Source: Conidiobolus incongruus B7586 | Taxonomy: Eukaryota | Direction of reading: 5' to 3' | NCBI GenBank assembly: GCA_000697335.1 | Contig: JNEM01009148.1 | Coordinates: 1 to 44,339 of the forward strand | DNA: 44,339 nucleotides | Shown: positions 1-38,700 of the stretch, in pieces | How positions within the stretch are numbered: position 1 is the stretch's first letter | How the letters are laid out: every line of letters begins with the position of its first letter | Notes under the pieces: generated by a model | Seen by the model: the letters and a program-made list of their open reading frames with translations, nothing else | Told to the model about the DNA's origin: nothing | Database searches by the model: none | Program-made: the position numbers and the translations under genes

Positions 1-1639
1 AAATATTGATAATTAATTAAAATTAAAATATTCATATAGTATAATATTTGAAATCTTTGCAAAATATTATATTTGATTTTACTATTAATATTCTATATAA
101 TATGTTGTAATTTTTTTATGATTTATTAGCAATACTAATATATACTTTTTAAATTATAAAATTCTAAATATAAAGATTAAATATAGATAGATTTTGTTAA
201 AATATGAAATATAACATTATTATTTAGTTGATATATAAACTTGATTAATGAAATATATTATCAATTTATTAATAAAATATTTATATTAATATATTTTCAT
301 AAATTGATAATATAGTTTATTTAATATTAAATGGTTTTTCGTAAAAAACATATTATTAAATAGTATTTTGTCAAAAAATATAGAATTATTATTATTATTA
401 TTATTATTATTATTTGCAAATAAATTACTAAAGCTCAAAAATAAGGTGTTTATAAAAAATAGCAAATTAAAATTTATAAATGAATAAATGACAGTGACAT
501 TGTTTAAATATGAATAATAAAAAGATGGAGATTAAACAAATACATTTAATATTCATTGTATTAATTTTACAATATGCAGCTTAGTTATTAATAAATATTT
601 AATACATCGGCTAATCATTTTACTCAATTAAAACACTAAATAATTAATGTCATTATACAGTAACAATATATAAATATATCTTTCAAATTGAATAATTTCA
701 AATTTTTAATTAAAATACTGTAACTTATTAAAATCCTTTAAAATAACTAAATATTAAAATTTGAATCAAGTAAAATATAATAAATTAATCAAAATTATTA
801 AAATATAATTAAAATTATTTTATATTTAAGGATTTAAATTAATAAATTTTAAATATTAAAAATAATTTTTAATATATTCTCATGGCTAAAATTGTTAAAA
901 TTGATATTATCTAGACTTAATTTCACAGTGGAATTGGACATTATGGAGCATGGGAATTTTAGATAGACTAATTTTGGAATAAAATTTAAATGAAATGTAT
1001 TTAACCATAAAATTGAGGTGAATAAACTATGATTTCTTGATATTTTTTTTGGTAAAGTATAATAAGCTTTGCTGTAAAAATGAATCTGGTTATATGTTTT
1101 GTTTATTCAGTCTATAAAATCTCTTATATTCATAATTTTGGTTAAATTTTCCAATCCAAAAGACAGTACTATTTCATATAGAATTCAATTCAATTCGATC
1201 CAATACTATTTTTAGATTAGTATGCTGAATGAAAAATTAAAATTCATTTGAATATGCTTTATATATCCATTAGTTTTAACATTAATTATTTATTTTCAAA
1301 TCATATTGAATAGTAAATTATGTCAATAATACCGAAATAGATTAACTAAAATGTTTAAATACATATGATTAAATATCAACATAATTCAATACTTAAAATT
1401 TCAAAATAGTATTTTACAAACTTTGAATTGATTTTTCATTAATATTTAATTAAATATATACCCTTGAATATAAATCAAGTTTCACTATAATTTTGCCTAA
1501 TATACTTGAATAAACTTGAGAATAACAGTTTCAAGAATTTCCACTGGTTTTGCACACACTTACCAATACTTAATCCAGGTCTAGATAAATTATTTCTTGC
1601 AACATAAACGCTCAGATATTATTTTACAATAACATATAA

Positions 1640-2125
1640 GTTCAAACAATATAGAATTAAATGCGTTATTGTTATTTTTAGTTAAGTATGAACAATTTTG
1701 ACTTTGTTTTTGCCTGTAAAATATCAGAACAAATTGAAGTCATATTTATCAAAGAATCAGCAATATCCAAGAAAAAATATAAAATATGATATATAAGAGT
1801 TTTTACAAAATACCAAAAATAAAACTTTGATAATAAATTTAAAACCTTAACAAAAGTAACTTTATATACGAAATTATTGGGTTGATTAGACCAAAGCTTA
1901 ATTATCAGTGTTATAAATTTTAAACCATATAAAAATAAGTATATAAAGGAATAACCTGTAAAGTTATTTAAGTCTATGAAATCAAGCTTTATTATTATAA
2001 ATTTAAGTTTTTAGAATGTATTTTCATAAAAGAAATGTATAATTAAAACTATAATTATTTGTTAAAATATTAAATTGAAAAAATTAAATAGAATATGTAT
2101 TATTAAAAAGACTTTATAAAAAGAT
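1640..2125 (+). pseudogene. tnpA: IS607-type TnpA serine recombinase relic
   Basis: 1781-1849 reads KI*YIRVFTKYQK*NFDNKFKTL (family pattern KIxYxRVSTxxQKxDLxxQ; catalytic Ser codon now TTT). 1867-2034 reads YEIIGLIRPKLNYQCYKF*TI*K*VYKGITCKVI*VYEIKLYYYKFKFLECIFIKE (pattern HEIIxDIGSGLNxxRxxFxxIL..V.KG....VVVAYxDRLCRxGFEFLEW.F). RLYKK near 2108-2122 matches RLYGxR. There is a weak HTH trace VQTI*N* at 1640-1660. Confidence 0.75.
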
Positions 2126-2215
2126 ATAAATATCAAATAAATAATAATAAATAAACCTTGGTAAAAAACTAATAATAATAACAAATTCAAAATAATATTC
2201 TTTTGAAAATATTAA

Positions 2216-3291
2216 AAAATCTGAGCTTGTTTTACTTTTGAACAAAAAAATGTAATTTAAAATAATCAACTGATGATCGGCGGTTTATTAAGGCTAAATG
2301 GAAGAGTATACTTAAACCAAAAAATATTAAAAAATAAATATCAAATATAAATTAATTCATAATAATAACCAATATGTAAATGAAAACTATTGTCATATTT
2401 AAAATAAAATATTTAATACTAATTTTATAGGCTAAAAATTCAAATATATATATATATATATTAGTAAACAAAGTGAATATAAATTGAATGTTATTTAATT
2501 GGAATATTAACAAGAGATAAATATATTTTAGCTTACCTATTTTAATAATAAACTAATTGAAATAGCGAACCTATTAATAAAAATACTTAATTAGATTATT
2601 TCCTTTAAAATACAAAGCTTGGTATATTTTATTTTGTATTTTAATACCATTGAAAATTAATAATAACTATTACACTCCTAAGCCAAATATAATTAAAAAA
2701 GGTTTTAACCCTTGAATTTAACATATAGACTTTTGTAACAAATTATTTCTTTTGGAGTTTATATATTTAAAAAAGATACTGTAGCGATTAAATATCTGTA
2801 TCGTTATTATAATAGAGTATAAAACAAATGGTTTTAAAAATTATACTATAAAAAATATTATAAAATGAGAAAATAGAAGAATAAAAAATTCAAATATTAT
2901 AAATAAGATATATAACAAATTTACCAAATTAATCTTTGAACAATATAATATTATTTTTTGCTTGGATTTGAGGTTTAAAAAATATAAATAAATAAATATA
3001 TATATTAAGAATAAAAATACAAAAATAACATAAAACTTACTCAATAAAACAAGGAAATGCCTTTAGTAAATAATAATCATTTGCAAAAAGCATTAAACAA
3101 GTAAAAACATATACAAACTATGGATATTTAATATATTGCTTTGATAAAGCAAGATTTTCTAGTACCCACAATATTATGCAAAGATCGATGAAGACATTAA
3201 TAATGCTAGAAACATACTCCTTTATGATTTAACAGTCAATCAAGCTAGACTTCTAGGATTGGTATTGTGGCTCACCCCCTTGGGGTCTTAA
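2216..3291 (+). pseudogene. tnpB: TnpB / Fanzor2-type RuvC nuclease relic
   Basis: KI*ACFTFEQK at 2216-2248 (KIRxYPTxEQK). TKLGIFYF/CILIPLKI at ~2611-2658. RuvC-I VLTLEFNI*TFVTNY at 2702-2746 (VxALDPGVRTFxTGY). Y.RV*NKWF*K and KFTKLIFEQYNIIF/LLGFEV follow. LLNKTRKCL**IIIICKKH*TSK/TYTNYG at 3037-3124 (LLxKxREYPWCxVxICxExYTSKTCxxCG). SKIF*YPQYYAKIDEDINNARNILL at 3148-3222 (SKxFxCPxC...DRDxNGARNILL). Stop at 3289-3291. Confidence 0.88.
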
Positions 3292-3380
3292 GACTCTATG
3301 CAAGACTTGGACAAAAGTGATCAAATTTGATTAAATTTGGACAAGGTTAATTGTTAGCGATTATCATAAAACGAACCTTA
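3240..3380 (+). ncRNA. Putative omegaRNA (scaffold plus flanking guide) of the TnpB/Fanzor element
   Basis: GC-richer segment overlapping the tnpB 3' end and running to the element end, the known position of TnpB/Fanzor omegaRNAs. Inverted repeats ctaga-ct-tctag, acccc-ctt-ggggt and gtcttaagac. Limits are inferred. Confidence 0.45.
3304..3343 (+). repeat. Four tandem imperfect 10-bp direct repeats (candidate TnpA-binding end motifs)
   Basis: gacttggaca / aaagtgatca / aatttgatta / aatttggaca in exact 10-nt register. Confidence 0.6.
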
Positions 3381-4454
3381 AAAATCAGCTATCCATTTTA
3401 ATTCTTAATTCTACCCCCATCATGATCTCTCTCAACCCAACTAATATGCCTAATTGAAAATAATAGTATAGGTATTCAAAGATAAAAAATTTAAAATTTT
3501 TCATGAAAATTATAAAAATAACAAATTATTAAAAATAATAATGGAATATAATAATTATAAAATATTACTTGACTTTCAATCAAATTAAAATATAAAATAA
3601 AATTAAATTAATATATTCTTGAGAAATTTAATATTAAATATTTTATAGTTATTATAAGAATAATTTAACATTACTAGTTTTAAAAATAATAGGGAATTTT
3701 TTTTATCAAAGTTATAGTTAATAATTTGAGAAAATTAAGTATAATTTTTATTTATTCAAAAAAGGAATATTTTTATTTTAATTTAATAATAAAAAAAATT
3801 AAATATATAAATTATTTCTTTTTATATAAACTTTTTTTTATTTATATTAAGATAATATCAAGTTAACTATTATTATCAAATTATACTTTACAATTTCAAA
3901 CCATACTTTAATTTGTCCATTAAAATATGATTATTATTTGTGATCTACTTGGTTCGCTAAAATATGGAATTCTGATTTCAATTAAAATAAATATGATATA
4001 TTGTGTTATTTTAATAAGCATTCATTTTAAATTAGTTGCTTATAGTAATCAATATTAAAATATATAACATTATATAAACTTTAAATTGTGATTTTTATTA
4101 CTTTTAATAAATTAACAATTTGATTGTTTGTATCATTTTTGATGGGAAGGTTAAATTATTAAATATGTTCAAACTACACAGTTATTCATAAGCTAAATAA
4201 TTTAAATACCAGTTTTTAATTTGGAGTAAAATAAATAAAATTTTCAGTATATTTAAAACTATTTGTATCTATAATTATTTTTCTTATATACAAATGAAAA
4301 ATTAATTGTTATTTAGGATAATAATTTTATTCTGTTTAAAATTAAGTAATTTAAAATGTCTATTTAGGATTAAATACAAAAAAAAATTTTTCTTTTATTA
4401 TTCTTATAACAGAATTTAAAAAGTTATTCAACCAATAGAATTTGATAATATGAA

Positions 4455-5040: not shown

Positions 5041-6123
5041 ATGCCTCCTAACGTATCCCTTTCAACCAAAGTAACTCAAGATATCCACCCAGATCATCGC
5101 CATCCATTATATTTAGGAGAATGGAAGCGTTCAATTCCCTACAAGGACACCGGAATGGCTGTCGATAACATGGATGAACCCCACTTCAAGCGCAAGTTAG
5201 CTATTCTAAAGAAGTATCCCGAAATTGCTAAACTTTATGGCCCAGACTGGAGAACTAAGTACATTATCATTATTACTACTTTGCTTCAACTCGGTTTAAG
5301 CTATCTGATCGGTAAGATTTGGCAACCTAGCGCTCTCCCAATGTTTTTGATGAGCTATTTTGTTGGAGGAACACTCACTGCTCTTTATGGAGTACTGATC
5401 CACGAATGTGCTCACAATCTTTGCTCACATAGCCCCTTGGCTAATCGTATCCTTGGTCTGATCGTTAATACTTGTATTCCTTTCCCTATTTCTTCTTCCT
5501 TCCGCCGTTATCACTTGACACATCACGCATACCAAGGTGTAGATGATATTGATCCTGATCTTCCACTTGAATGGGAATTATATTTGATTAAAGGTAATTC
5601 ATTCCTTAAATTCCTCTGGGTCTTCTGCTATCCCCTCATGTATGTTGTCCGTGGTATTGCTAAGTTCAAGCCTTTAAGTTTTTGGGAAATTGTGAATATT
5701 ATCTATACCATTACTGTCGACCTACTGGTTTTATACTTCTGTGGTGTCCAAGGCTTCCTTTATCTCTTCTTCTCCCTCTGGTTAGGTTATGGTCTTCATC
5801 CTGGCGCTGCTCATTTTATTCAAGAACACTACACCTTTGATGATGGTCAAGAGACATACTCCTACTATGGTGTATTGAATAAGGTATTTATGAATATCGG
5901 ATATCATAATGAACATCATGACTTTATGCAAATTTCATGGGCCAACTTGCCTGAAGTACGTCGTATTGCACCAGAATTCTACAACACTTTGAAATATCAT
6001 ACCAGCTGGGTATGGATGCAAGTCCGTTTCATTACAGAGAGTATGATGGGACCTCAATCCAGAGCTATTAGAAGCCAACAATCCCATAAAGAGGGCAGGA
6101 AATTGGTCGAAAAATCAAATTAA
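5041..6123 (+). CDS. DES1: Sphingolipid delta(4)-desaturase (dihydroceramide desaturase), intronless
   Basis: N-terminal EPHxxRxxxILKKYPEIxKLxGPD motif. His boxes HECAH, HLTHH, HNEHH. LHPxAAHFIxEHY and ETYSYYG motifs. Confidence 0.95.
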   Translation: MPPNVSLSTKVTQDIHPDHRHPLYLGEWKRSIPYKDTGMAVDNMDEPHFKRKLAILKKYPEIAKLYGPDWRTKYIIIITTLLQLGLSYLIGKIWQPSALPMFLMSYFVGGTLTALYGVLIHECAHNLCSHSPLANRILGLIVNTCIPFPISSSFRRYHLTHHAYQGVDDIDPDLPLEWELYLIKGNSFLKFLWVFCYPLMYVVRGIAKFKPLSFWEIVNIIYTITVDLLVLYFCGVQGFLYLFFSLWLGYGLHPGAAHFIQEHYTFDDGQETYSYYGVLNKVFMNIGYHNEHHDFMQISWANLPEVRRIAPEFYNTLKYHTSWVWMQVRFITESMMGPQSRAIRSQQSHKEGRKLVEKSN

Positions 6124-7034: not shown

Positions 7035-7432
7035 AACGTCGATACTTAAGGTAATTGATGGGGAATGATCTTGTCAATTACTCAAGAAACTCCGATTACC
7101 ACACTGGATCGTAAAGTCACATTGCAAACACTTATTTCCTGAACTCTAATATAACATTATCACGAACGAACTAATAAACACATCTCTTTTACCTTCATTC
7201 CAAAAGTATCCAGTCTCTAAGTTTTCCTCGTAACCCTCACAAAAGTGTTGAGCTGTGACGAGTGTGAGATAGTTACTTTACACGAAGAACCCAATTTACA
7301 GTAAGCCGTTTGCACCTGATTTGGTGAACCTTATCGATTTCCCGTAACTCTGTGGTAACCTGTCATTTACCACTGGCGATTCCCCGCTTAAGCTCTAAAA
7401 GTCTATTTCCTCCTACAATTACGGTCGTCATA
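7035..7432. ncRNA. Unassigned structured non-coding island (ncRNA candidate)
   Basis: Sharp GC/CpG-rich island inside extremely AT-rich flanks, with no ORF of 60 aa or more and many local and long-range complementary segments. Confidence 0.4.
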
Positions 7433-9509
7433 ATGATATTAAAAAAATTAATAATATATATGTAATATTTTATATTCTAATTATTTTATTAAAATCCAAA
7501 TTAATAAATAAAATTTATAAAACCTAATATATAATAAATATAATTTCTGAATATTAAATTTCAATAATTTTAAATTATATTATTATTATTATTATTAAAT
7601 TAAATATTTTTAATTATTAATTGATAAACTAAAGCTTATATTTTAATGATAAAACAATGATTAATAATTTAAGTTTTGAAGATTAAAAATATTTTGACCT
7701 AAATTTAATAACTAAGGAATATATATATAAATGAATTTCCATATAGTTTCGTTGATAATAAACCTCCAAAGCAATATATAAATATATTTGAGTATTTTAA
7801 TTCTATAAAACATAATTATAAAAATTCATTTCATATTTCAAAATGAGTTTATGAGTATGAAAAATATATTAATTTAATTAGCATTAGTTTATATAATATT
7901 TTAAAATCGAAACAATATTCAAATTTGTTCAAAAGCAAATTGAATAAGCTAATATCTCAATTGAAACAATATCATACTGAGAGTGCACAATTATAGTTGG
8001 TTGAGAAAATACAATAAAAAATGGTCCTTGAAATTTGTCTATAATAGCTGAGATATTTGAATAGTTTAACAAATTTCCAAGTCAGTAAAGTATAAATATC
8101 ATATAATCTATCAATAAAATCATACTAAAAGTATTATATTTTTATTACTTATTTGAATAGAAGTTTAGTTAAATATAAATTGTCTCATGCAAAATAATAC
8201 TTCCACTACAATGTTGATTGAAATCCTATTTCATATTCCAAGCACTTTGTAGAGATAAAAATTTGGAATAATCTCTTAATAATAAACTTTCAAATACAGT
8301 ATATATATTATTTGATTTTAAAAATATATAAATTTTTGCAAAAAGTAATTTACTCAATTTAAATATACGTTTTTGAATTGTATATTAAGATATATTATAC
8401 TCTCAAGTTAATCATAAAGACATTTTTTATACTATTGAAACTTCTGTACCAATATTTAAAGTAAAAGGAAAAGATTATCTAATTTATTTATATTGATGTA
8501 TTTGTATATAAATTGGGAGTTATTTTGGATTATAAATTTCAAATTAAAATAAAATCAATGATTAATAATTTGAAATTAAAATTGATCTCAAACAATTTGA
8601 TAAGTTGCAATAATAAGCTATTTGATACTTTATATATTAATAAATTTTAATTATTTAATACAAATTTCAAAATTAACCTATATAGTAAATTTGAATATAA
8701 GCAGGAGTACTAAAAGGTTTGTGTATTTAAGTTTTAACATCAATCAGCAAAATTATATCACTTTCATTTATGAATGGTTTTAAACTGAAAATTAATGAAA
8801 TAAGTTATTATTTTTAACTTGATTTATCCATTGAATTTAAAACAAAAATAAAGTGATATTGGTCATTAATGTTATGAAAAAAACGAGGTCATAAGTTGTC
8901 ATTATTATTAAACTATTACCTTTATATTTTAATTTAATAATATATCAAATTTTAATAATTAATTTTAAATTAATCTTTTAAGGAAATATATTTTTGTTAT
9001 TGAAATTTTTTAATAGAAAAAATTATTCTTATATAGGATAATAAAATATACTTATATTGGTAAATCTATCGTTAATATTTATGAGATTAATATTAAATAA
9101 TAATCAATGCTATTAATCAATGTTTACTAAAAACCAGTAATCAAATAAATTATATAAATTTAGCAGAATGTTTATAACTTTAGAGTATGTAAATTTGAAT
9201 TTTTCTCGTTGAAATCATTCAAAATAAAATGAAAAATTACTATATTAATCAAGATTTATTATGTATAATTATATTTTATGACATTTAATTTAGTTTGACG
9301 CAGCAAGACAGTGTTTATTTATTACAAGGCAAAGGTTTCAAATTGGTAATAAGATTCCATCTCTGATCAATCATATCTTAGTTTATAAAGCAAATACTAT
9401 ATTACCATTAATTATATAAACCCAATAAATCTTAACTTAGTTTAAAATTAATAAAATAATTAAATCATTAACTTATCCAATTTAAGATTTACTCTATAAT
9501 TTATAAACT

Positions 9510-10412
9510 ATGTTTAAATTTTTAAAGAAAAGCCCTAAACAACTGTTCAAAGACCGCTCTTCCTTTGATGGTAAGGTGGATGGCAGTCCAGTACATAAGA
9601 TAGGTCCCGAAGAAGGTGTAGACATCGGTGAATATCATTTGTCTTTCAACTGCTATACTGGTGCTATGTTCACATTAATTAAAAATTGTAAAGCTTGTAT
9701 GATGGAGCACTCAGATGAAGAACTTTGCAACTTATTCAGGAAGACTGCGAAAACTATGAAAATTGGTAAAAAAGAAAAAATGTTAGTTGCCCAAATGATG
9801 ATGTCCAGGGAAGATGAAACCATTTACGACAACGTAGCAGCCTTATCATCTGTATTAACTCAGCGTCAACTTTATCGTATATTAATGGATTCAACTCTAC
9901 TTTTTAAATCCAATAAAAAAACTGCTGAAGACTTGGGTAAGGCAATATGCAAGAAGAGACTCGAAGAAATTGCATCAGGTGAAATTGACGGTTATGTGGA
10001 CGCCATTTCCAATACACTTGCTTATGGTGTTAGTCAGGATTTGGTTCGCCCTACGGGATGGAATGATGAATGCCAGCATAAAGGACGCAAATCTTTTTTC
10101 GGTAAGGTGAAAAATGGACACACCTGTGAAGCTTTGATTCCAAATTGTCTGGGAAATGCAGTACTTGGAATATCAATAATTGGTGATCAAATTACTATGA
10201 CCAAGGATGAATTCCTGCGCTTTACCCGCGAGTTCAACATCTCTTGTGATGGATTTATTTTAGATAAAGGTAACATCCATTTGTCTGGTGATGAAGTTAT
10301 AGATAGATGTGATCACGATGAAGGCAAGTGTCAATTTAATGAGCTTCCGGATGAGGTACATGTTGGTTACAGTGAAGAAGCTGATCAAATGATAATTTTT
10401 TATAATGTATAG
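9510..10412 (+). CDS. Hypothetical protein, 300 aa, intronless, Cys/Met-rich
   Basis: Long clean ORF with coding-like composition in an AT-rich background. TATATAAA ~95 nt upstream. No family recognised. Confidence 0.8.
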   Translation: MFKFLKKSPKQLFKDRSSFDGKVDGSPVHKIGPEEGVDIGEYHLSFNCYTGAMFTLIKNCKACMMEHSDEELCNLFRKTAKTMKIGKKEKMLVAQMMMSREDETIYDNVAALSSVLTQRQLYRILMDSTLLFKSNKKTAEDLGKAICKKRLEEIASGEIDGYVDAISNTLAYGVSQDLVRPTGWNDECQHKGRKSFFGKVKNGHTCEALIPNCLGNAVLGISIIGDQITMTKDEFLRFTREFNISCDGFILDKGNIHLSGDEVIDRCDHDEGKCQFNELPDEVHVGYSEEADQMIIFYNV

Positions 10413-12070: not shown

Positions 12071-14101
12071 TTAAATATCATAAGGAGAAGTATTATTAGT
12101 CCACTTATTTGCCCATCTGATCTTTTCAGCGAACCATCTCAACTGGTTAGCAGGCTTGGAGACCCAATGATTCTCATCAGGGAAGTAGAGGAATCTGGAG
12201 GGAACGCCTTGGCGTTGAAGAGCAGTAAAGGCCGCAATACCGTCAGTGCTGACGCAGCGGTAGTCCTTGCCACCGTGGATGAGGAGAGTGGGGGTACGCC
12301 ATTTGGAAACAGTGTTCATAGGATTCCAGCGTTCAACAATGTCGCGAACTTCCCAGGCGGGACCTCCAAACTCGGCCTCGTTGAAGAAGGTTTCGTCGGT
12401 GGTGAAGTAATCTTCGTAAGTATCAAACGTACCATCGTGGCCTATGAGACATTGGAAGCGGTCAGTGTGACCATTGAGCCAATTGACCATATATCCACCG
12501 TAGGAAGCACCCCAAGCACAGGATCTCTTATCGTCTAAGAAGTTGTACTTTTGGAGGGCGTAGTCGTAGCCCTTGATCAAATCTTCATAAGGATAACCTC
12601 CATAGTGCTGGAAGATAGAATCGGTGAATTTTTGACCGTAACCGGTAGATCCGTGGAAATTGATCATTATGACAGCATAGCCAGCAGATGCTGGGATTTG
12701 AGGATTCCAACGATAACCGAAGCTATCACCCCAAGCGCTTTCAGGACCTCCGTGAACCCAAAAAGCAACTGGGTACTTTTTGCCTTCTTGGAAGTTAACA
12801 GGCTTAACGATCAAACCGTGAACGACTTCATTCAAAGCACCCTTGAACCAGAAAGATTCGGCATCTTGAAGTTGGTAATCTTTGTAAGCATCGATATTAA
12901 ATGAAGTGAGTTTCTTTTCGTTGGCACCATCCAAATTGACTGTAAACAATTCAGAAGGTTGATTGATTCTAGTTTTTTTGAAGATGACTTCATTGTCATT
13001 AACTTGAAATACTGAAGCAGATCCAGTTTGAGTCAATTCCTTGAGCTTTTCAGTCTCAATATCTAACTTGAACAACTTGTTCTTGGAGAGATGATTGGCA
13101 TCCAAGATCAATGACTTGGAATCTGGAGTGAATTCAACGGATCCGGCGCTAAGATCCCAATCGTCGTACAAATATCTCTTCTTCTTGGTGGTTCTGTCGT
13201 AAAGGACAATATGGTTGCGATCAGATTCGTTATTATCTTTGATGATTTCTAACCAAGCTAAATACTTGCCATTTGGAGAGTATGTGGGAGATGCAAGGGC
13301 ACCTAATCCACTATCATTGATCTTAACAGGCGCTTTACTTCCATCGGAGGGGACAATATAGAGCTCTAAAGTGGTTTTCCAGGCGATATCTCTACGATCT
13401 GGACGAGTTAAGAAAGCAACTTCTTTTCCATCAGGAGAAATTGCATAATCACCACTATCGCCAAATGGAGAAATGGGAGTACTTGACTTGGGAGTTTCGA
13501 TCAATAAATCTTTTCCAGAGTTAGGGACATTTCCATCAAGACTAGCAGCAAAGAGATGGCTTCTGACTGAGTAATCCTTGAACTCATCCCAATGACGTAC
13601 ATAGAGCTGCTCATAAACCAAAGCTGAGTCGAATCTCTCTTCTTTCTTTTCCAATTGGTATTCGGTTGTGAAGGTCAATAACTTTGATTCAGGATGATAC
13701 TTCACATTATCAATAGATTCATAAGTGAAATTTGTCAATTGTTTGATGGTAGGATTGTTAACATCCTTAAAGCTAATAGACCAGAACTGAGCAGTATCAT
13801 CCTTATTAGCGACATAACCAACCTCATCATCATTGAGCCAAATCGGATTATAAAAATCGGAAGGTAAAGTTGATGTCAAATTGGTAGACTGACCAGATTT
13901 CAAATTATATAAGAAAACATTCACTTTCTTTTTATTGGTCTCTTTATCATATTGGGAAGTGCTGTAAATTACATTTTGACTATTTGGTGAAATTGCATCA
14001 TAAGTAGTTCTAGGTAAAGTTACCAAAACTTCAGGTGATACTGGTTTCTTTCGACCTTGAACTAAACTTAATAAAATATTAATTAGAAATAATTTTTTCA
14101 T
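12071..14101 (-). CDS. DPP5: Secreted dipeptidyl-peptidase V (peptidase S9C), copy 1
   Basis: Signal peptide, LYVRHWD, SPDG/SPNG propeller repeats, HGGPES, GSTGYGQ, nucleophile GASYGG, KDYR, DENHWV. Confidence 0.93.
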   Translation of the reverse strand: MKKLFLINILLSLVQGRKKPVSPEVLVTLPRTTYDAISPNSQNVIYSTSQYDKETNKKKVNVFLYNLKSGQSTNLTSTLPSDFYNPIWLNDDEVGYVANKDDTAQFWSISFKDVNNPTIKQLTNFTYESIDNVKYHPESKLLTFTTEYQLEKKEERFDSALVYEQLYVRHWDEFKDYSVRSHLFAASLDGNVPNSGKDLLIETPKSSTPISPFGDSGDYAISPDGKEVAFLTRPDRRDIAWKTTLELYIVPSDGSKAPVKINDSGLGALASPTYSPNGKYLAWLEIIKDNNESDRNHIVLYDRTTKKKRYLYDDWDLSAGSVEFTPDSKSLILDANHLSKNKLFKLDIETEKLKELTQTGSASVFQVNDNEVIFKKTRINQPSELFTVNLDGANEKKLTSFNIDAYKDYQLQDAESFWFKGALNEVVHGLIVKPVNFQEGKKYPVAFWVHGGPESAWGDSFGYRWNPQIPASAGYAVIMINFHGSTGYGQKFTDSIFQHYGGYPYEDLIKGYDYALQKYNFLDDKRSCAWGASYGGYMVNWLNGHTDRFQCLIGHDGTFDTYEDYFTTDETFFNEAEFGGPAWEVRDIVERWNPMNTVSKWRTPTLLIHGGKDYRCVSTDGIAAFTALQRQGVPSRFLYFPDENHWVSKPANQLRWFAEKIRWANKWTNNTSPYDI

Positions 14102-19507: not shown

Positions 19508-21532
19508 ATGAAAGTATCCCTACTTTTTTCTCTTTTAGTCTTTGTAGTTGCTGGGGAAAAGAAGCCTCTCAGTCCCACTGATTTGATTGCTTTCCCCCGT
19601 AACTCCATCCAAACTGTCTCTCCCGATGGCAAATCTGCTCTCTATTCTACCACCACATATAATCCTCAGACAAATAAGAAATCAAAGCACTTCTTCTTAC
19701 TTGACATCGCTTCCGGATCTGCAAAGAATGTAACTGAATTCATTCCCGCTGGTTTCAACACTCCCTCATGGATTGATGACAATAATTTAGGTTTCTTTGC
19801 CACTAAAGATAAAAAAACTCAATTTTTCTCTTTCCAATTTGGCAAAGAAATCTCCAAACCTGTTCAACTTACCAACTTCACTCAAGAAATCAGCAATTTC
19901 AAATATCATGCTGATTCTAAGTTATTAACTTACACTGTTGATTTTGAGTTGGAAAAGAAACCTGAAACTTTTGATTCCGGTCTTGCTTATGAACAATTAT
20001 ATGTTCGTCACTGGGATACTTTCAAGGATTACAATGTTTACTCTCATCTTAATGCTGTCCCCATTGGCAAAGATATAGTTACTAAAGGCGTTGATTTGAT
20101 GGCTAAAACTCCCAAGGCTAGCACTCCAGTTGGACCTTTTGGTGATGCTGGTGATTATAGCATTTCACCCGATGGTAAAGAAGCTGTCTTCTTGACCAGA
20201 CCCGACAAAAAGAACATTGCTTGGAAAACCACCTTGGAATTATATCAAGTTCCTACTGATGGATCAGCCGCTCCTGTCAAGATCAATGATGAAGGATTGG
20301 GTGCCATTGCTTCTCCTCGCTACTCTCCCGATGGCAAATACATTGCTTGGTTAGAAATCACCTCTGACAACAACGAATCTGGTCGCAATCACATTGTACT
20401 TTGGGATCGCGCCACCAAGAAGAAGAAGTATTTGTATGACAACTGGAATTTAAGCCCTACTTCCGTTGATTGGGCTAAGGATTGTAAGACTTTATTACTA
20501 TCTGTACCTCACCATGCCCGTGTCAAGATCTACTCCTTAGATATTGAAGGCAAGAATCTCAAAGAATTGACCTCCAATGGAAAATCTACTCTTTATGAGG
20601 CCCGTAAGGATCACATTCTCTTCACTCAAAATGACTTGACCAGCTTACCTGAATTGCACTCAATGAACTTGGATGGCTCTAATGTCAAGAAGTTAACCAA
20701 CCTCAATACCAAGCTTATTGAACAATATCACACCTCCAAACCTGAATTCTTCTGGTTCAAGGGCGCTAAGGATGAATTGGTTCATGGTTTCATTCTCAAG
20801 CCTATCAACTACCAAGAAGGTAAAAAATATCCCATTGCCCTTTGGGTTCATGGTGGTCCTGAATCTAACTTTGCTGATTCTTTCGGCTTCGGTTGGAACC
20901 CTCAAATTCCTGCCAATGCTGGTTTCGCTACTATCATTATTAATTTCCATGGTTCTACCGGTTACGGTCAAAACTTCACTGAATCCATCCTCCATAACTG
21001 GGGCAGTTATCCCTTCGAGGATATTATGAAGGGCTTTGACTATGCTCTTACTAAATATCCTTACCTCGATGGCAACCGTGCCTGTGCTTGGGGTGGTTCT
21101 TATGGTGGTTTCATGATGAACTGGCTCAATGGTCACACTGATCGCTTCAAGTGTCTCATCAATCACGATGGTGTCTTTGATACCAAACATTCTTACTACA
21201 CCACTGACGAACTCTTCTTTATGGAAAACGAAAATGGTGGTACACCTTGGGAAAATCCCGAAAACTACAATAAATGGAATCCTGCCAACTTTGTCAAGAA
21301 CTGGAAGACTCCCACTTTAGTCATTCATGGTGGTAAGGACTACCGTTTGGTCGATGGTGAAGGTTTAGCCACTTTCACTGCCCTTCAAAGACAAGGTGTT
21401 CCTTCTAGACTCCTCTACTTCCCTACCGAAAACCACTGGGTCTTGGATTCAGCTAACCAGATCAGATGGTTGAATGAAAAGATCAAGTGGGCCAACAAGT
21501 GGACTAACAACACTTCTCCCTACAAGCTTTAA
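19508..21532 (+). CDS. DPP5: Secreted dipeptidyl-peptidase V (peptidase S9C), copy 2
   Basis: Signal peptide, LYVRHWD, HGGPES, GGSYGG, KDYR, ENHWV. Colinear with copy 1. Confidence 0.93.
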   Translation: MKVSLLFSLLVFVVAGEKKPLSPTDLIAFPRNSIQTVSPDGKSALYSTTTYNPQTNKKSKHFFLLDIASGSAKNVTEFIPAGFNTPSWIDDNNLGFFATKDKKTQFFSFQFGKEISKPVQLTNFTQEISNFKYHADSKLLTYTVDFELEKKPETFDSGLAYEQLYVRHWDTFKDYNVYSHLNAVPIGKDIVTKGVDLMAKTPKASTPVGPFGDAGDYSISPDGKEAVFLTRPDKKNIAWKTTLELYQVPTDGSAAPVKINDEGLGAIASPRYSPDGKYIAWLEITSDNNESGRNHIVLWDRATKKKKYLYDNWNLSPTSVDWAKDCKTLLLSVPHHARVKIYSLDIEGKNLKELTSNGKSTLYEARKDHILFTQNDLTSLPELHSMNLDGSNVKKLTNLNTKLIEQYHTSKPEFFWFKGAKDELVHGFILKPINYQEGKKYPIALWVHGGPESNFADSFGFGWNPQIPANAGFATIIINFHGSTGYGQNFTESILHNWGSYPFEDIMKGFDYALTKYPYLDGNRACAWGGSYGGFMMNWLNGHTDRFKCLINHDGVFDTKHSYYTTDELFFMENENGGTPWENPENYNKWNPANFVKNWKTPTLVIHGGKDYRLVDGEGLATFTALQRQGVPSRLLYFPTENHWVLDSANQIRWLNEKIKWANKWTNNTSPYKL

Positions 21533-35763: not shown

Positions 35764-38700
35764 TGAATGAGTATGATTATGGTTATGAATATGAATATGA
35801 AATTAAGCTAATAATATGAAGTATGAAAGATATTTATATATGCTATTCAATACAACAGTAGCCCTAGATGAAAAGTTTGATGAACGATCATTGCCCTATT
35901 CAGACACAATGAACTCATTATAGAAACAACTAAACATTTGAATCTCAGTTGATTATTTTTATTATCAATTGAAATTGCTAAATTTAAAATGTTACAAAAA
36001 TTTTGAAATGTAGCCAAATTTTGTTACTTGATTTCATTACTATTCAAAATACATTATTACTGTTTCAACTACTTTAGAGTTTCATAAAATCATATTTTAC
36101 TGCAATTTTTATTGATTTTTATTATTTTGAATCATAATAGTATTGAAAATTAATCAGCATTGTTTGATTATAGTATTAATAGTATTAATTTGGTGAATTT
36201 CATTTATATGAACATTATTATGAATTGCAGCATTATTTTTTCAACAAAATGAGTTGATGTGATTTAATGGAATATGTACATGGATAATATAGTGCATCTT
36301 TACAGCCATTACCAATCTTATTAACCATTAATAAGCTGAATATCACCAAATTTCATAATTACCATAAGATTTTCTGATATATTAATTATTCGATAAATAA
36401 ATCACTTCCATGAAAATGATATGATTATATTGATATTCATTGAATATATTCTTGAGGTACTAACTTTATTGAGTTAAAATAATCCAATTTACAATAACAT
36501 TAGTTTTATTTATTTTTAACCTATCCCAATGACGATGTGTATAGTATTTGCACCTATTGAATCATAGTAATATAAAATTTTAGGTTATTTTTACAGCTCA
36601 TCTTGATTTTTAAAACTCTAGATTTGGATACTTTGTTCTGGAATTTGTATAACTAAGATTGAATCCTCTGTAATAATATACAGATTCACCAATTGTCATT
36701 ATAAAAATATATAGTATTGTTTGGACGTAAAGGATATTGATATAGTTGAATTAAATTTTAACGTTTTTCTATGCGATATCAATTGTTTTACACTATATTG
36801 TTGTTTGTCTCTTTCAATTAAGACAATTAATCATAATAATAAATTATTTTCAAAGAATTTAAATTGAAAACATGATAAAGTTTTTGATAAATATCCATTA
36901 TTCCATTTTACAATTGAATATCATTGATTTAAATTTTAACGATATCAAAAAACAAGATCAACAATTAGTAAATATATTAATTATATCAAGCTGGTGGACA
37001 ATATCTGTGTTATTAAGGTGAGTAAATAATTAAGTACATTTTTTATCATAAAAACTTGGTTTAAGGAATATATTCAATTACCTATCCATGATCAATCTTA
37101 ATTTATAATATTATGTTTGATTACATAGGATTTTAATTCAATATATTAAGCTTATTTATCTTGACAATCTAAATGACCACAACTTGACTGAGTTTGATTA
37201 GCAAAATATTGTATAAAACCTCAAATGAATTCAATGAATAATTTATATGCTATTACACTGTCAGTTAGTCCTTGAACTAAATAGTTGATATGTTGATAAA
37301 AATGGCTAATATAATGGCAGGATCTTGAAGTATAAATAAAAGAGGTATAAAAATGTTAAATTCTTATTATTTATTAATTTAAAATCCAACATTAATACAA
37401 TATAAATTGGCTAAATTTGAAATAATAAATAGCAAGTAGTCAATAAATTCGACTTCTAGCCTTTATTTGAAATATGTCAATATTCGTAATTGGAATGAAT
37501 GCAATTTTATAATATATAAGATAATAGCATAAATTATATGACTTTAGCTACTGGTTAAATTAATCAGCTAATTCTTTTGGCACAATAGTCACATGTTGAT
37601 TTAGATACAAATGAGGCAATTGTGACTTAATTTCAAGTTGTCAGATTTAATATTAATTAATAAATTTTTCAACTTCAATTAATTACTGATTTACAGACAT
37701 TTGCTTTGAATAATATATAGATGTAATAACTATAAATATTATCAAATGCAACTAATAATGGAATTTAACATTTTTAAAATATTTAAATTACCAAACTGAC
37801 TAACATCCAACCTTAATAGTTGCCAATTTTGACCAAATAAATGATGGAGATTATTATTGCATTAGTTTAAATATTTACTATATACCGTAGCATAGTCATT
37901 GTTAGCCTTTATTATTATAAATTATCGATCCACAAATAATAACTTGTATAAATGTATATAAAATATATTCAAGCTTGAAAATCAAAATCCTTTTGCATTG
38001 GTATTTTGAATATATTTTTTTAATTAAAATATATATTTGCATATATTTATATGTCAAGGAAAATATTTAATTAGAGTGTTTCCTAATATATTAAGGAAAA
38101 AAAATATATGACTGACATACAATTTTCATATTTTTTCAAGGTTCACAATAGTTGAATAGTAAATATTGTATTGAATGATGGTAGATAAGAGTAGATATAT
38201 ACTAGTACATTATTTATGAAAACATTGGGTTATACCATATATCAACTATTGTACAAAAACTAATTTGTATACTGGATGTTTTTTTATAGCAATTGAAATT
38301 ACTAACCACTCAAGTTTGATCGTATTTTAAAATAAAATCAAACCAAGAATTATATACTAAAAACCATATATAACAATATACAATAAAGTCAAGTACCATA
38401 TTTTAAATAATTTAATATACTAAGTCTATATTGATTTTCGATTAATTTGAAAAATGATTGCTACTTAGTGCTCATAGTATTTATGAAGAAAAGATTAAGG
38501 TTCATTTGAAACGATTTTCAATTTGTTTCTGAAATGGAGAAAAACTTACTTATCAATGATTAAGAACATCTACTGCCAAAAAATATGAACATCAATAATT
38601 GACAGTATGAAGAAAGGATTGATACAAGAGATATACATCTAGAAAATTTAAGTTAGATTTAATTTAGTTTTAAGATCGAAACTAATGGAGAAATATCTTT

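Follow-up and report, generated by a model that had tools for sequence, protein, structure and literature searches.

Dense C:G>T:A damage in a relic IS607-Fanzor2 transposon of Conidiobolus follows a CpG-first context and is likely linked to methylation

A broken coding element in a 44,339-nucleotide stretch of fungal DNA (hereafter the window, meaning the whole stretch analysed) raises the question of which process destroyed it. Repeat-directed C>T hypermutation outside Dikarya is disputed, with indices published in 2024 saying yes and a kingdom-wide screen of 2025 saying no. The original prediction for this locus placed an element at 1781-3222 and held it to be destroyed almost only by C>T and G>A transitions, through a RIP-like genome defence acting outside its textbook range.

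A decayed coding element is present where it was placed. Briefly, positions 2851-3231, with stop codons entered as X, were searched with phmmer against 1.84 billion proteins, and all five matches are TnpB/Fanzor proteins carrying PF07282. A search started from a cluster member of these matches gave 542 relatives, of which 120 were listed; 127 proteins were ranked against the relic, and a close nuclease profile was built from 13 of the best among the 127, the other 114 being left out. The top single nuclease relative (P0161) scores 192 bits, and the nearest named relatives (P0121 and P0200) come from the glomeromycotan Diversispora epigaea, those closer still being metagenome proteins. A TnpA profile was assembled from 11 IS607 recombinases from viral contigs; all four that were scanned pass NF033518. 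With a fixed transition matrix, the recombinase and the nuclease reach 38.2 and 38.4 bits, respectively, versus maxima of 21.1 and 23.5 bits among 30 controls, all AT-rich stretches taken from the window. Judged by these alignments, the element is a relic IS607-type transposon that would have encoded a serine recombinase (TnpA) and a Fanzor2/TnpB nuclease (Table 1).

Plain HMMER with the TnpA profile returns E values of only 0.013 and 0.43, and with the Fanzor profile it does not recover the relic; tblastn with viral-locus open reading frames yields low-complexity noise only. The relic frames go unrecognised by Pfam, by phmmer against PDB and by phage tblastn, and metagenome scans give no match for the right-end motif and none for relatives of P0126. 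LINE, Gypsy, mariner and CACTA readings were weighed by eye and discarded after the TnpB and recombinase motifs aligned.

Table 1. Coordinates in the window of the relic element, of its damaged codons and of the host gene used for placement
Feature	Position	Strand	Remarks
Whole IS607-type element, relic	1522..3352	+	left end approximate (about 1500-1533); right end 3352-3354
IS607 serine recombinase (TnpA) catalytic domain, relic	1784..2034	+	catalytic Ser codon is TTT at 1802; one frameshift
Fanzor2/TnpB nuclease relic, confidently aligned part	2406..3288	+	296 codons, 274 bits
RuvC-I segment (family L-D-P-G-V-R-T-F)	2711..2734	+	transitions in Pro, Gly and Arg codons
Shifted RuvC-II Glu (AAG, 3088), C4 zinc finger (4/4 Cys to Tyr) and RuvC-III D-x-D-I-N-x-A-R-N-I	3088..3216	+	
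Right end, expected place of guide (omega) RNA	3181..3352	+	multi-copy; far fewer mutations than body
Ser>TTT	1802	+	aligned family residue
Pro>TTT	2717	+	aligned family residue
Gly>AAC	2720	+	aligned family residue
Gly>AAT	2520, 2544, 2741	+	aligned family residues
Arg>TAG	2726, 2874	+	aligned family residues
Cys>TAT/TAC, 4/4 zinc ligands	3110, 3119, 3163, 3172	+	aligned family residues
Glu>AAG	2905, 3088	+	aligned family residues
Gln>TAA	2606, 2820, 2835, 2976	+	aligned family residues
Host sphingolipid delta-4 desaturase	5041..6123	+	outside element; served to place host

The N-terminal helix-turn-helix part of TnpA falls outside the alignment, the upstream part of the nuclease (about 1960-2400) aligns weakly, and the reading frames of the relatives extend to about 3330. 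The motif D-X(125,275)-[TS][TS]-X-X-C4 zinc finger-X(5,50)-RD is present in the relic in mutated form. The closest relatives carry DPG at RuvC-I together with a C-terminally shifted RuvC-II Glu, and the relic aligns with both (2714-2722 and 3088) through mutated codons; the RuvC-I Asp position reads GAA, which requires a transversion. At the right end, the RNA fold has a z score of -1.33 and no credible Rfam match. Inverted pairs number 269, and the 25 longest include none that connects both ends of the element as a terminal inverted repeat would, though decay could mask one, and the 19 matches to a 9-base end motif, versus 13.1 expected, do not amount to a clear enrichment.

The original prediction hinged on a host outside Ascomycota, and the desaturase gene downstream of the element bears this out. 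Its product shares 90% identity with Conidiobolus coronatus CONCODRAFT_76714, and the other named fungal matches stand at about 60%; because of this gap, the sequence places the host in Conidiobolus (Entomophthoromycotina, Zoopagomycota) and not among the ascomycetes. None of four window proteins matched the protein collection exactly, which, with the 52% identity of an S9 peptidase described below, marks the host as a Conidiobolus distinct from the C. coronatus reference. The element would add an IS607-Fanzor2 family to Entomophthoromycotina. A literature search, conducted mostly outside subscription papers, found no publication that treats Conidiobolus and Fanzor together.

Within the window, genes have a GC content of 37-41%, spacers 18.5% and the relic 17.5%. 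Elsewhere in it, a 400-base island (7040-7440) of about 33% GC, with a normal CpG observed/expected ratio of about 1.2, lies among spacers of 15% GC; it contains no open reading frame of 100 amino acids, no Pfam match and no Rfam match up to E 1, and is possibly a small gene or a non-coding RNA. An intronless open reading frame of 300 amino acids (9510-10412, plus strand) has no significant Pfam family, no exact match in the protein collection and no usable atlas match. Two divergently oriented paralogues of an S9 peptidase (dipeptidyl-peptidase V-like) lie at 12071-14101 on the minus strand and 19508-21532 on the plus strand; they share 396 of 673 residues and 64% of their nucleotides, and the top C. 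coronatus match of the second is only 52%. An ORC4-like gene (PF14629, E 3e-9), split by introns, occupies about 32100-33900 (minus strand). At 34951-35763 (minus strand) is encoded a protein whose hydrophobic N-terminus precedes a poly-proline tract and four repeats that contain Cys, for which no significant Pfam family was found. Finally, a stop-broken hydrophobic frame at about 35950-36500 (plus strand), again with no Pfam match found, looks by eye like a decayed membrane-protein gene.

The substitution spectrum of the relic was estimated with a codon model that joins the protein profile of the family to synonymous codon usage and allows for frameshifts, the base-substitution matrix being left free. 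Only codon positions 1 and 2 of the body (332 codons) enter the spectrum, with ancestral codons inferred from proteins and not from intact DNA. Rates per site reach 0.57 for C>T and 0.63 for G>A. Transversions from C and G are at 0.04 for C>A/G>T (95% below 0.10) and 0 for C>G (below 0.02), and changes from A and T are at 0.04 for A>G/T>C (below 0.08), 0.01 for A>T and 0 for A>C; the non-transition rates among these also contain true protein divergence from the profile. Softer profiles, used first, gave transversions of about zero, and the sharper close-relative profile gives 0.04-0.05 for C>A/G>T, the figure reported here. Of the substitutions inferred at positions 1 and 2 of the nuclease, about 131 of 169 are C>T or G>A. 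The body is thereby estimated to have lost about 60% of its C and G, for the most part to C:G>T:A changes that affect both strands. As foreseen, both types run along the coding strand, at similar and high rates.

A local fit from a neutral start stuck in 35 codons, and multi-start fits were used instead. Four of five starting matrices, one of them transversion-rich, lead to C>T rates of 0.59-0.65; the fifth gives 0.41 with a shorter alignment. Two sets of simulations (24 and 30) show that the estimator distinguishes pure-transition, 10:1, 3:1 and 1:1 spectra, and the relic estimate of 0.54 fits the 10:1 simulations (0.48-0.57) and not 3:1 drift (0.36-0.44). Fifteen shuffled or spacer controls produce short alignments only and no consistent transition-only fit.

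Transitions were not the only agents of decay. Among 153 near-invariant nuclease columns, the residue survives in 62, C>T or G>A changes suffice in 50, and 41 require another change, a number that compares with 22-33 in the 10:1 simulations and 45-60 at 3:1. The alignment score of 274 falls within the range of the 3:1 drift simulations (238-296). An ancestor more distant from the profile could account for both the excess of non-transition columns and the drift-range score. The nuclease alignment further contains 9 frameshifts, 7 in-frame deletions and 2 insertions, counts that depend on the alignment, which with the single frameshift of the recombinase makes about 19 indels. Since these indels stand beside 41 of 91 changed conserved codons that need another change, destruction 'almost only' by C>T/G>A was overstated, even though such transitions dominate. 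Eight of the nine types of codon change offered as examples are located at aligned family residues (Table 1); for the ninth, CGA>TGA, no aligned Arg offered an instance.

Sequence context was examined over 368 codons with a chain model whose rates depend on the neighbouring bases, under three codon-usage assumptions. CpG carries the highest rate (0.83-0.85, at or near the limit of the fit, with a lower bound of about 0.7), followed by CpA (0.53-0.56) and CpT (0.51-0.60), and CpC is at 0.23-0.28. The effect of the 3' neighbour gives 2dLL of 28.5-34.9 across the three codon usages, versus 0.5-8.1 in six flat-rate simulations; no effect of the 5' base was found (2dLL 2.3-3.4 on 3 df). In the whole set of 12 context simulations, the fitted order is recovered, and RIP of the CpA type gives CpA 0.85 and CpT 0.19-0.34. 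The CpA preference that is a trait of Neurospora RIP is thus lacking: CpG comes first, and CpA is about equal to CpT. The contexts originally named (CpA, CpG and CpC) were rightly called broader than Neurospora CpA, but CpC proves to be the least affected and CpT is affected as much as CpA. Judged against the usual thresholds for RIP, the relic's indices (product TpA/ApT 1.03, substrate 1.03, composite 0.00) do not indicate RIP.

To count copies, contigs of four runs (X1-X4) from a single sample, which may be the source of the window itself, were matched to positions 1300-3700 at 80% likeness. A single contig covers the whole stretch at a depth of 28.9 with zero differences. In bins 3163-3405, depth is 448-1107 versus the 28.9 of this spanning contig; a given right-end variant is carried by up to 21-22 contigs, and in run X1 ten contigs end their match at 3352 and four at 3354. 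Based upon this depth, these variants and these 14 contig ends, the sample holds roughly 20-35 copies of the right end. At the left end, three contigs with variants match from 1522 (run X1). Single contigs also join left-end to right-end sequence, 1577 to 3227 and 1651 to 3304; joints of low likeness can be false, and these two suggest short copies with internal deletions. Among the longest body pieces, which are those listed, none exceeds 173 bases at 80% besides the locus itself, so other element bodies are absent, deleted or less than 80% alike. At the right end, 22 of the 29 variants listed (73 weaker ones left out) are C/T or G/A, and G or C still stands at 48 of 130 bases. Between 3225 and 3335, the window departs from the copy majority at 15 of the places listed, nine of them by C>T or G>A.

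The damage is spread unevenly along the element. The C>T/G>A load is 0.15 (0.01-0.34) in the last 36 aligned codons (3181-3295) versus 0.59 (0.54-0.65) in the body, a difference with a 2dLL of 18.9 at a boundary, 3181, that was picked after seeing the data (division into seven segments gives 24.6 on 6 df). None of 48 uniform simulations yields an end load of 0.2 or less, and their largest 2dLL is 6.8. Uniform drift therefore does not account for the spared last ~170 bases.

The spacers give a second view of targeted versus genome-wide change. The fitted spectrum would equilibrate at 6.6% GC versus the 18.5% of the spacers, and the observed/expected ratio of CpA is 1.19 in spacers versus 0.95 in the relic; low CpG (0.56) and high CpC (1.34) are features that the spacers have in common with the relic. 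The composite index of 14 spacer tiles has a mean of -0.62 (sd 0.18, maximum -0.26), and the relic's value falls outside this range; simulated relics score -0.06 to -0.27 under every model, indicating that much of the gap between relic and spacers is ancestry. For TpC, the observed/expected ratio is 0.78 in the relic versus 1.09 in spacers, and the 3'-context model alone gives 0.91-0.93. As for a single-copy neutral control, Pfam detects no pseudogene in seven spacer regions, and the S9 pair, with 43 transition and 34 transversion differences at four-fold sites, was set aside as too old and saturated. The 36 amino-acid differences between the desaturase and its C. coronatus counterpart (11 transition-type, 21 transversion-type, 4 multi-step) are a weak control, being under selection. 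These three indirect lines, namely the spared end, the predicted versus actual GC, and the CpA and composite index of the spacers, favour targeting. The suggestion that the same process explains the very AT-rich spacers is unsupported, as the spacers keep both their CpA and a GC content well above the predicted one.

How, then, was the body damaged? A repeat-directed process becomes likelier because the host is no ascomycete, the element is repeated, C:G>T:A change affects both strands and the load is uneven; to this extent the proposal of repeat-targeted deamination stands. The CpG-first context, unlike the CpA context of RIP, points to decay of methylated cytosines rather than RIP proper. 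We favour, with a probability of roughly 0.55, the reading that the body damage reflects such decay in a silenced repeat, at CpG and non-CpG sites; its steps from marking to deamination we infer. The host would mark the element as a repeat, and DNMT1-type and DIM-2-type activities would place 5mC on it in CpG and non-CpG contexts. The 5mC would then deaminate to thymine across many cell generations, making a pairing step unnecessary, while indels of the usual kind and occasional other substitutions would accrue alongside. The right end may have escaped by lying where the methylated domain stops, or have been renewed from the many short end-only copies; alternatively, gene conversion or selection on ends in the course of non-autonomous transposition may have kept it. 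The CpG-first context, the equal strands and the absent 5' preference all fit 5mC decay, and the favoured reading rests on one element with inferred ancestors. The accessible text of PMC11105155 reports PF00145 genes in all fungi of its set, and these could be tRNA-type DNMT2.

Much of the same evidence bears on generic drift, in which a genome-wide, strong C:G>T:A bias with CpG hypermutability would have worn down the relic and the end would look younger through selection or replacement from copies. The nearly equal GC of relic and spacers, their shared CpG and CpC values, the indels expected of long neutral decay, and a parsimony count and score near the 3:1 simulations all suit it, as do the places pooled from run X1 (68 transitions, 34 transversions, including short chance matches in AT-rich DNA). 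We nonetheless consider drift doubtful: with C>T at 0.6, the rates of A>T, A>C and C>G stay close to zero, the equilibrium GC and the spacer CpA disagree with it, the load differs fourfold inside one insertion, and the decayed body, by the longest pieces listed, is not visibly re-amplified. The desaturase differences, weak control as they are, also lean toward transversions.

A true RIP-like mutator would recognise duplicates by pairing, probably near the sexual stage, and convert cytosines in bursts with a context broader than in Neurospora. Equal strands, a very high load and heavy non-CpG damage are compatible with this. RIP has a length threshold, which would be in keeping with the tapering at the end and with short end-only copies being less damaged. 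In the available parts of PMC12543289, C. coronatus repeat pairs of at least 1 kb number 0 at 95-100% identity and 555 at 80-95%, a gap that may reflect assembly; RIP has also been proposed for Zoophthora radicans, as discussed below. We judge such a mutator unlikely, given that the top context is CpG and not CpA, that CpT far exceeds the value simulated for CpA-type RIP, and that the product and substrate indices are both 1.03. Further, PMC5751038, as far as its accessible text goes, reports fungal RID/Masc1 from Pezizomycotina only, and the k-mer screen of PMC12543289 scores C. coronatus as 'no_rip'. It would be a long shot, to which we grant little credence, that Conidiobolus possesses a RID-independent, repeat-directed cytosine mutator (CpG > CpA/CpT) that index and k-mer screens miss and that erases transposons, keeping its genomes small while those of sister Entomophthoraceae exceed 500 Mb.

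An APOBEC/AID-like deaminase acting on single-stranded transposon DNA or R-loops would, by pure C>U chemistry, yield the same class of transitions, and the low TpC ratio of the relic hints in this direction. Enzymes of this kind choose their targets by the preceding (5') base, and their changes come in strand-coordinated runs. The relic has no 5' context effect, its strand loads are equal overall, and the 3'-context model by itself goes part of the way to its low TpC; together these points make this origin highly improbable.

The damage to the Conidiobolus element is RIP-like in outcome and departs from RIP in context and indices; it is likely methylation-linked decay, undocumented by alignment in this lineage. 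If methylation decay is the true cause, non-CpG 5mC would exist in a phylum described as 5mC-poor. The locus contributes to the dispute an alignment-based spectrum, from a repeat family whose copies run into the tens, that index and k-mer screens would both miss.

Precedents for the favoured reading come from other fungi. CpG-led C>T change in fungal transposons, with a CpG signature in Microbotryum, rusts and Tuber, has been attributed to methylation and tied to DNMT1-type enzymes (available portions of PMC4352252 and PMC3318451); in Tuber, CpA is affected besides CpG. In Zymoseptoria tritici, Dim2 drives mitotic C>T mutation at CpA in transposons (PMC8016269, in the part available), and DIM-2 is reported from early-diverging fungi in the excerpts at hand of PMC7862722 and PMC13297926. 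The accessible sections of PMC11258239 locate 5mC at repeats in Phycomyces and Linderina and call it scarce in Zoopagomycota. The Conidiobolus relic resembles these systems, as far as those texts describe them, in its excess of C:G>T:A in a repeat, on both strands, with CpG first and, as Tuber also shows, a non-CpG class behind it; it differs in its zoopagomycotan host, in CpA and CpT rates that are both about 0.55, in the absence of a TpCpG preference and in that its methylation is putative.

With RIP of Neurospora and other Pezizomycotina, the relic shares the inactivation of a repeat by dense C>T and G>A change on the coding strand. In contrast to that system, it lacks the CpA preference, its indices stay outside the RIP range, and RID is unreported in the lineage. 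A place 'outside the textbook range' holds as regards the host, but the relic is not the first such case: in the available text of an eLife 2024 study (PMC11105155), the composite index is positive in 24.2% of Z. radicans windows and RIP outside Dikarya is suggested, with caveats. That claim concerns the same fungal order (Entomophthorales) and asks the same question; it relies, in the text available, on composite indices in large-genome species, unlike the alignment-based spectrum presented here for Conidiobolus, which index thresholds would miss. A PLoS Biol 2025 study (PMC12543289), in its accessible parts, finds RIP-like signatures in Ascomycota only. A literature search on RIP in early-diverging lineages, again reaching few subscription papers, found no alignment-based study of Conidiobolus repeats.

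Among mobile elements, the closest comparison is with IS607-Fanzor2 elements as described in the available portions of PMC3627910 and bioRxiv 2023.08.09.552727. The relic has TnpA upstream of a TnpB-like gene and the DPG, shifted Glu, C4 zinc finger and RD motif of these elements; like them, it has many end-only copies. Elements of this kind carry neither terminal inverted repeats nor a target-site duplication; the relic may likewise lack such repeats, none having turned up among the 25 longest inverted pairs. The 2013 species table, as accessible in PMC3627910, places fungal Fanzor2 only in four Saccharomycetaceae yeasts. The Conidiobolus element differs from the IS607-Fanzor2 elements described there in being dead.
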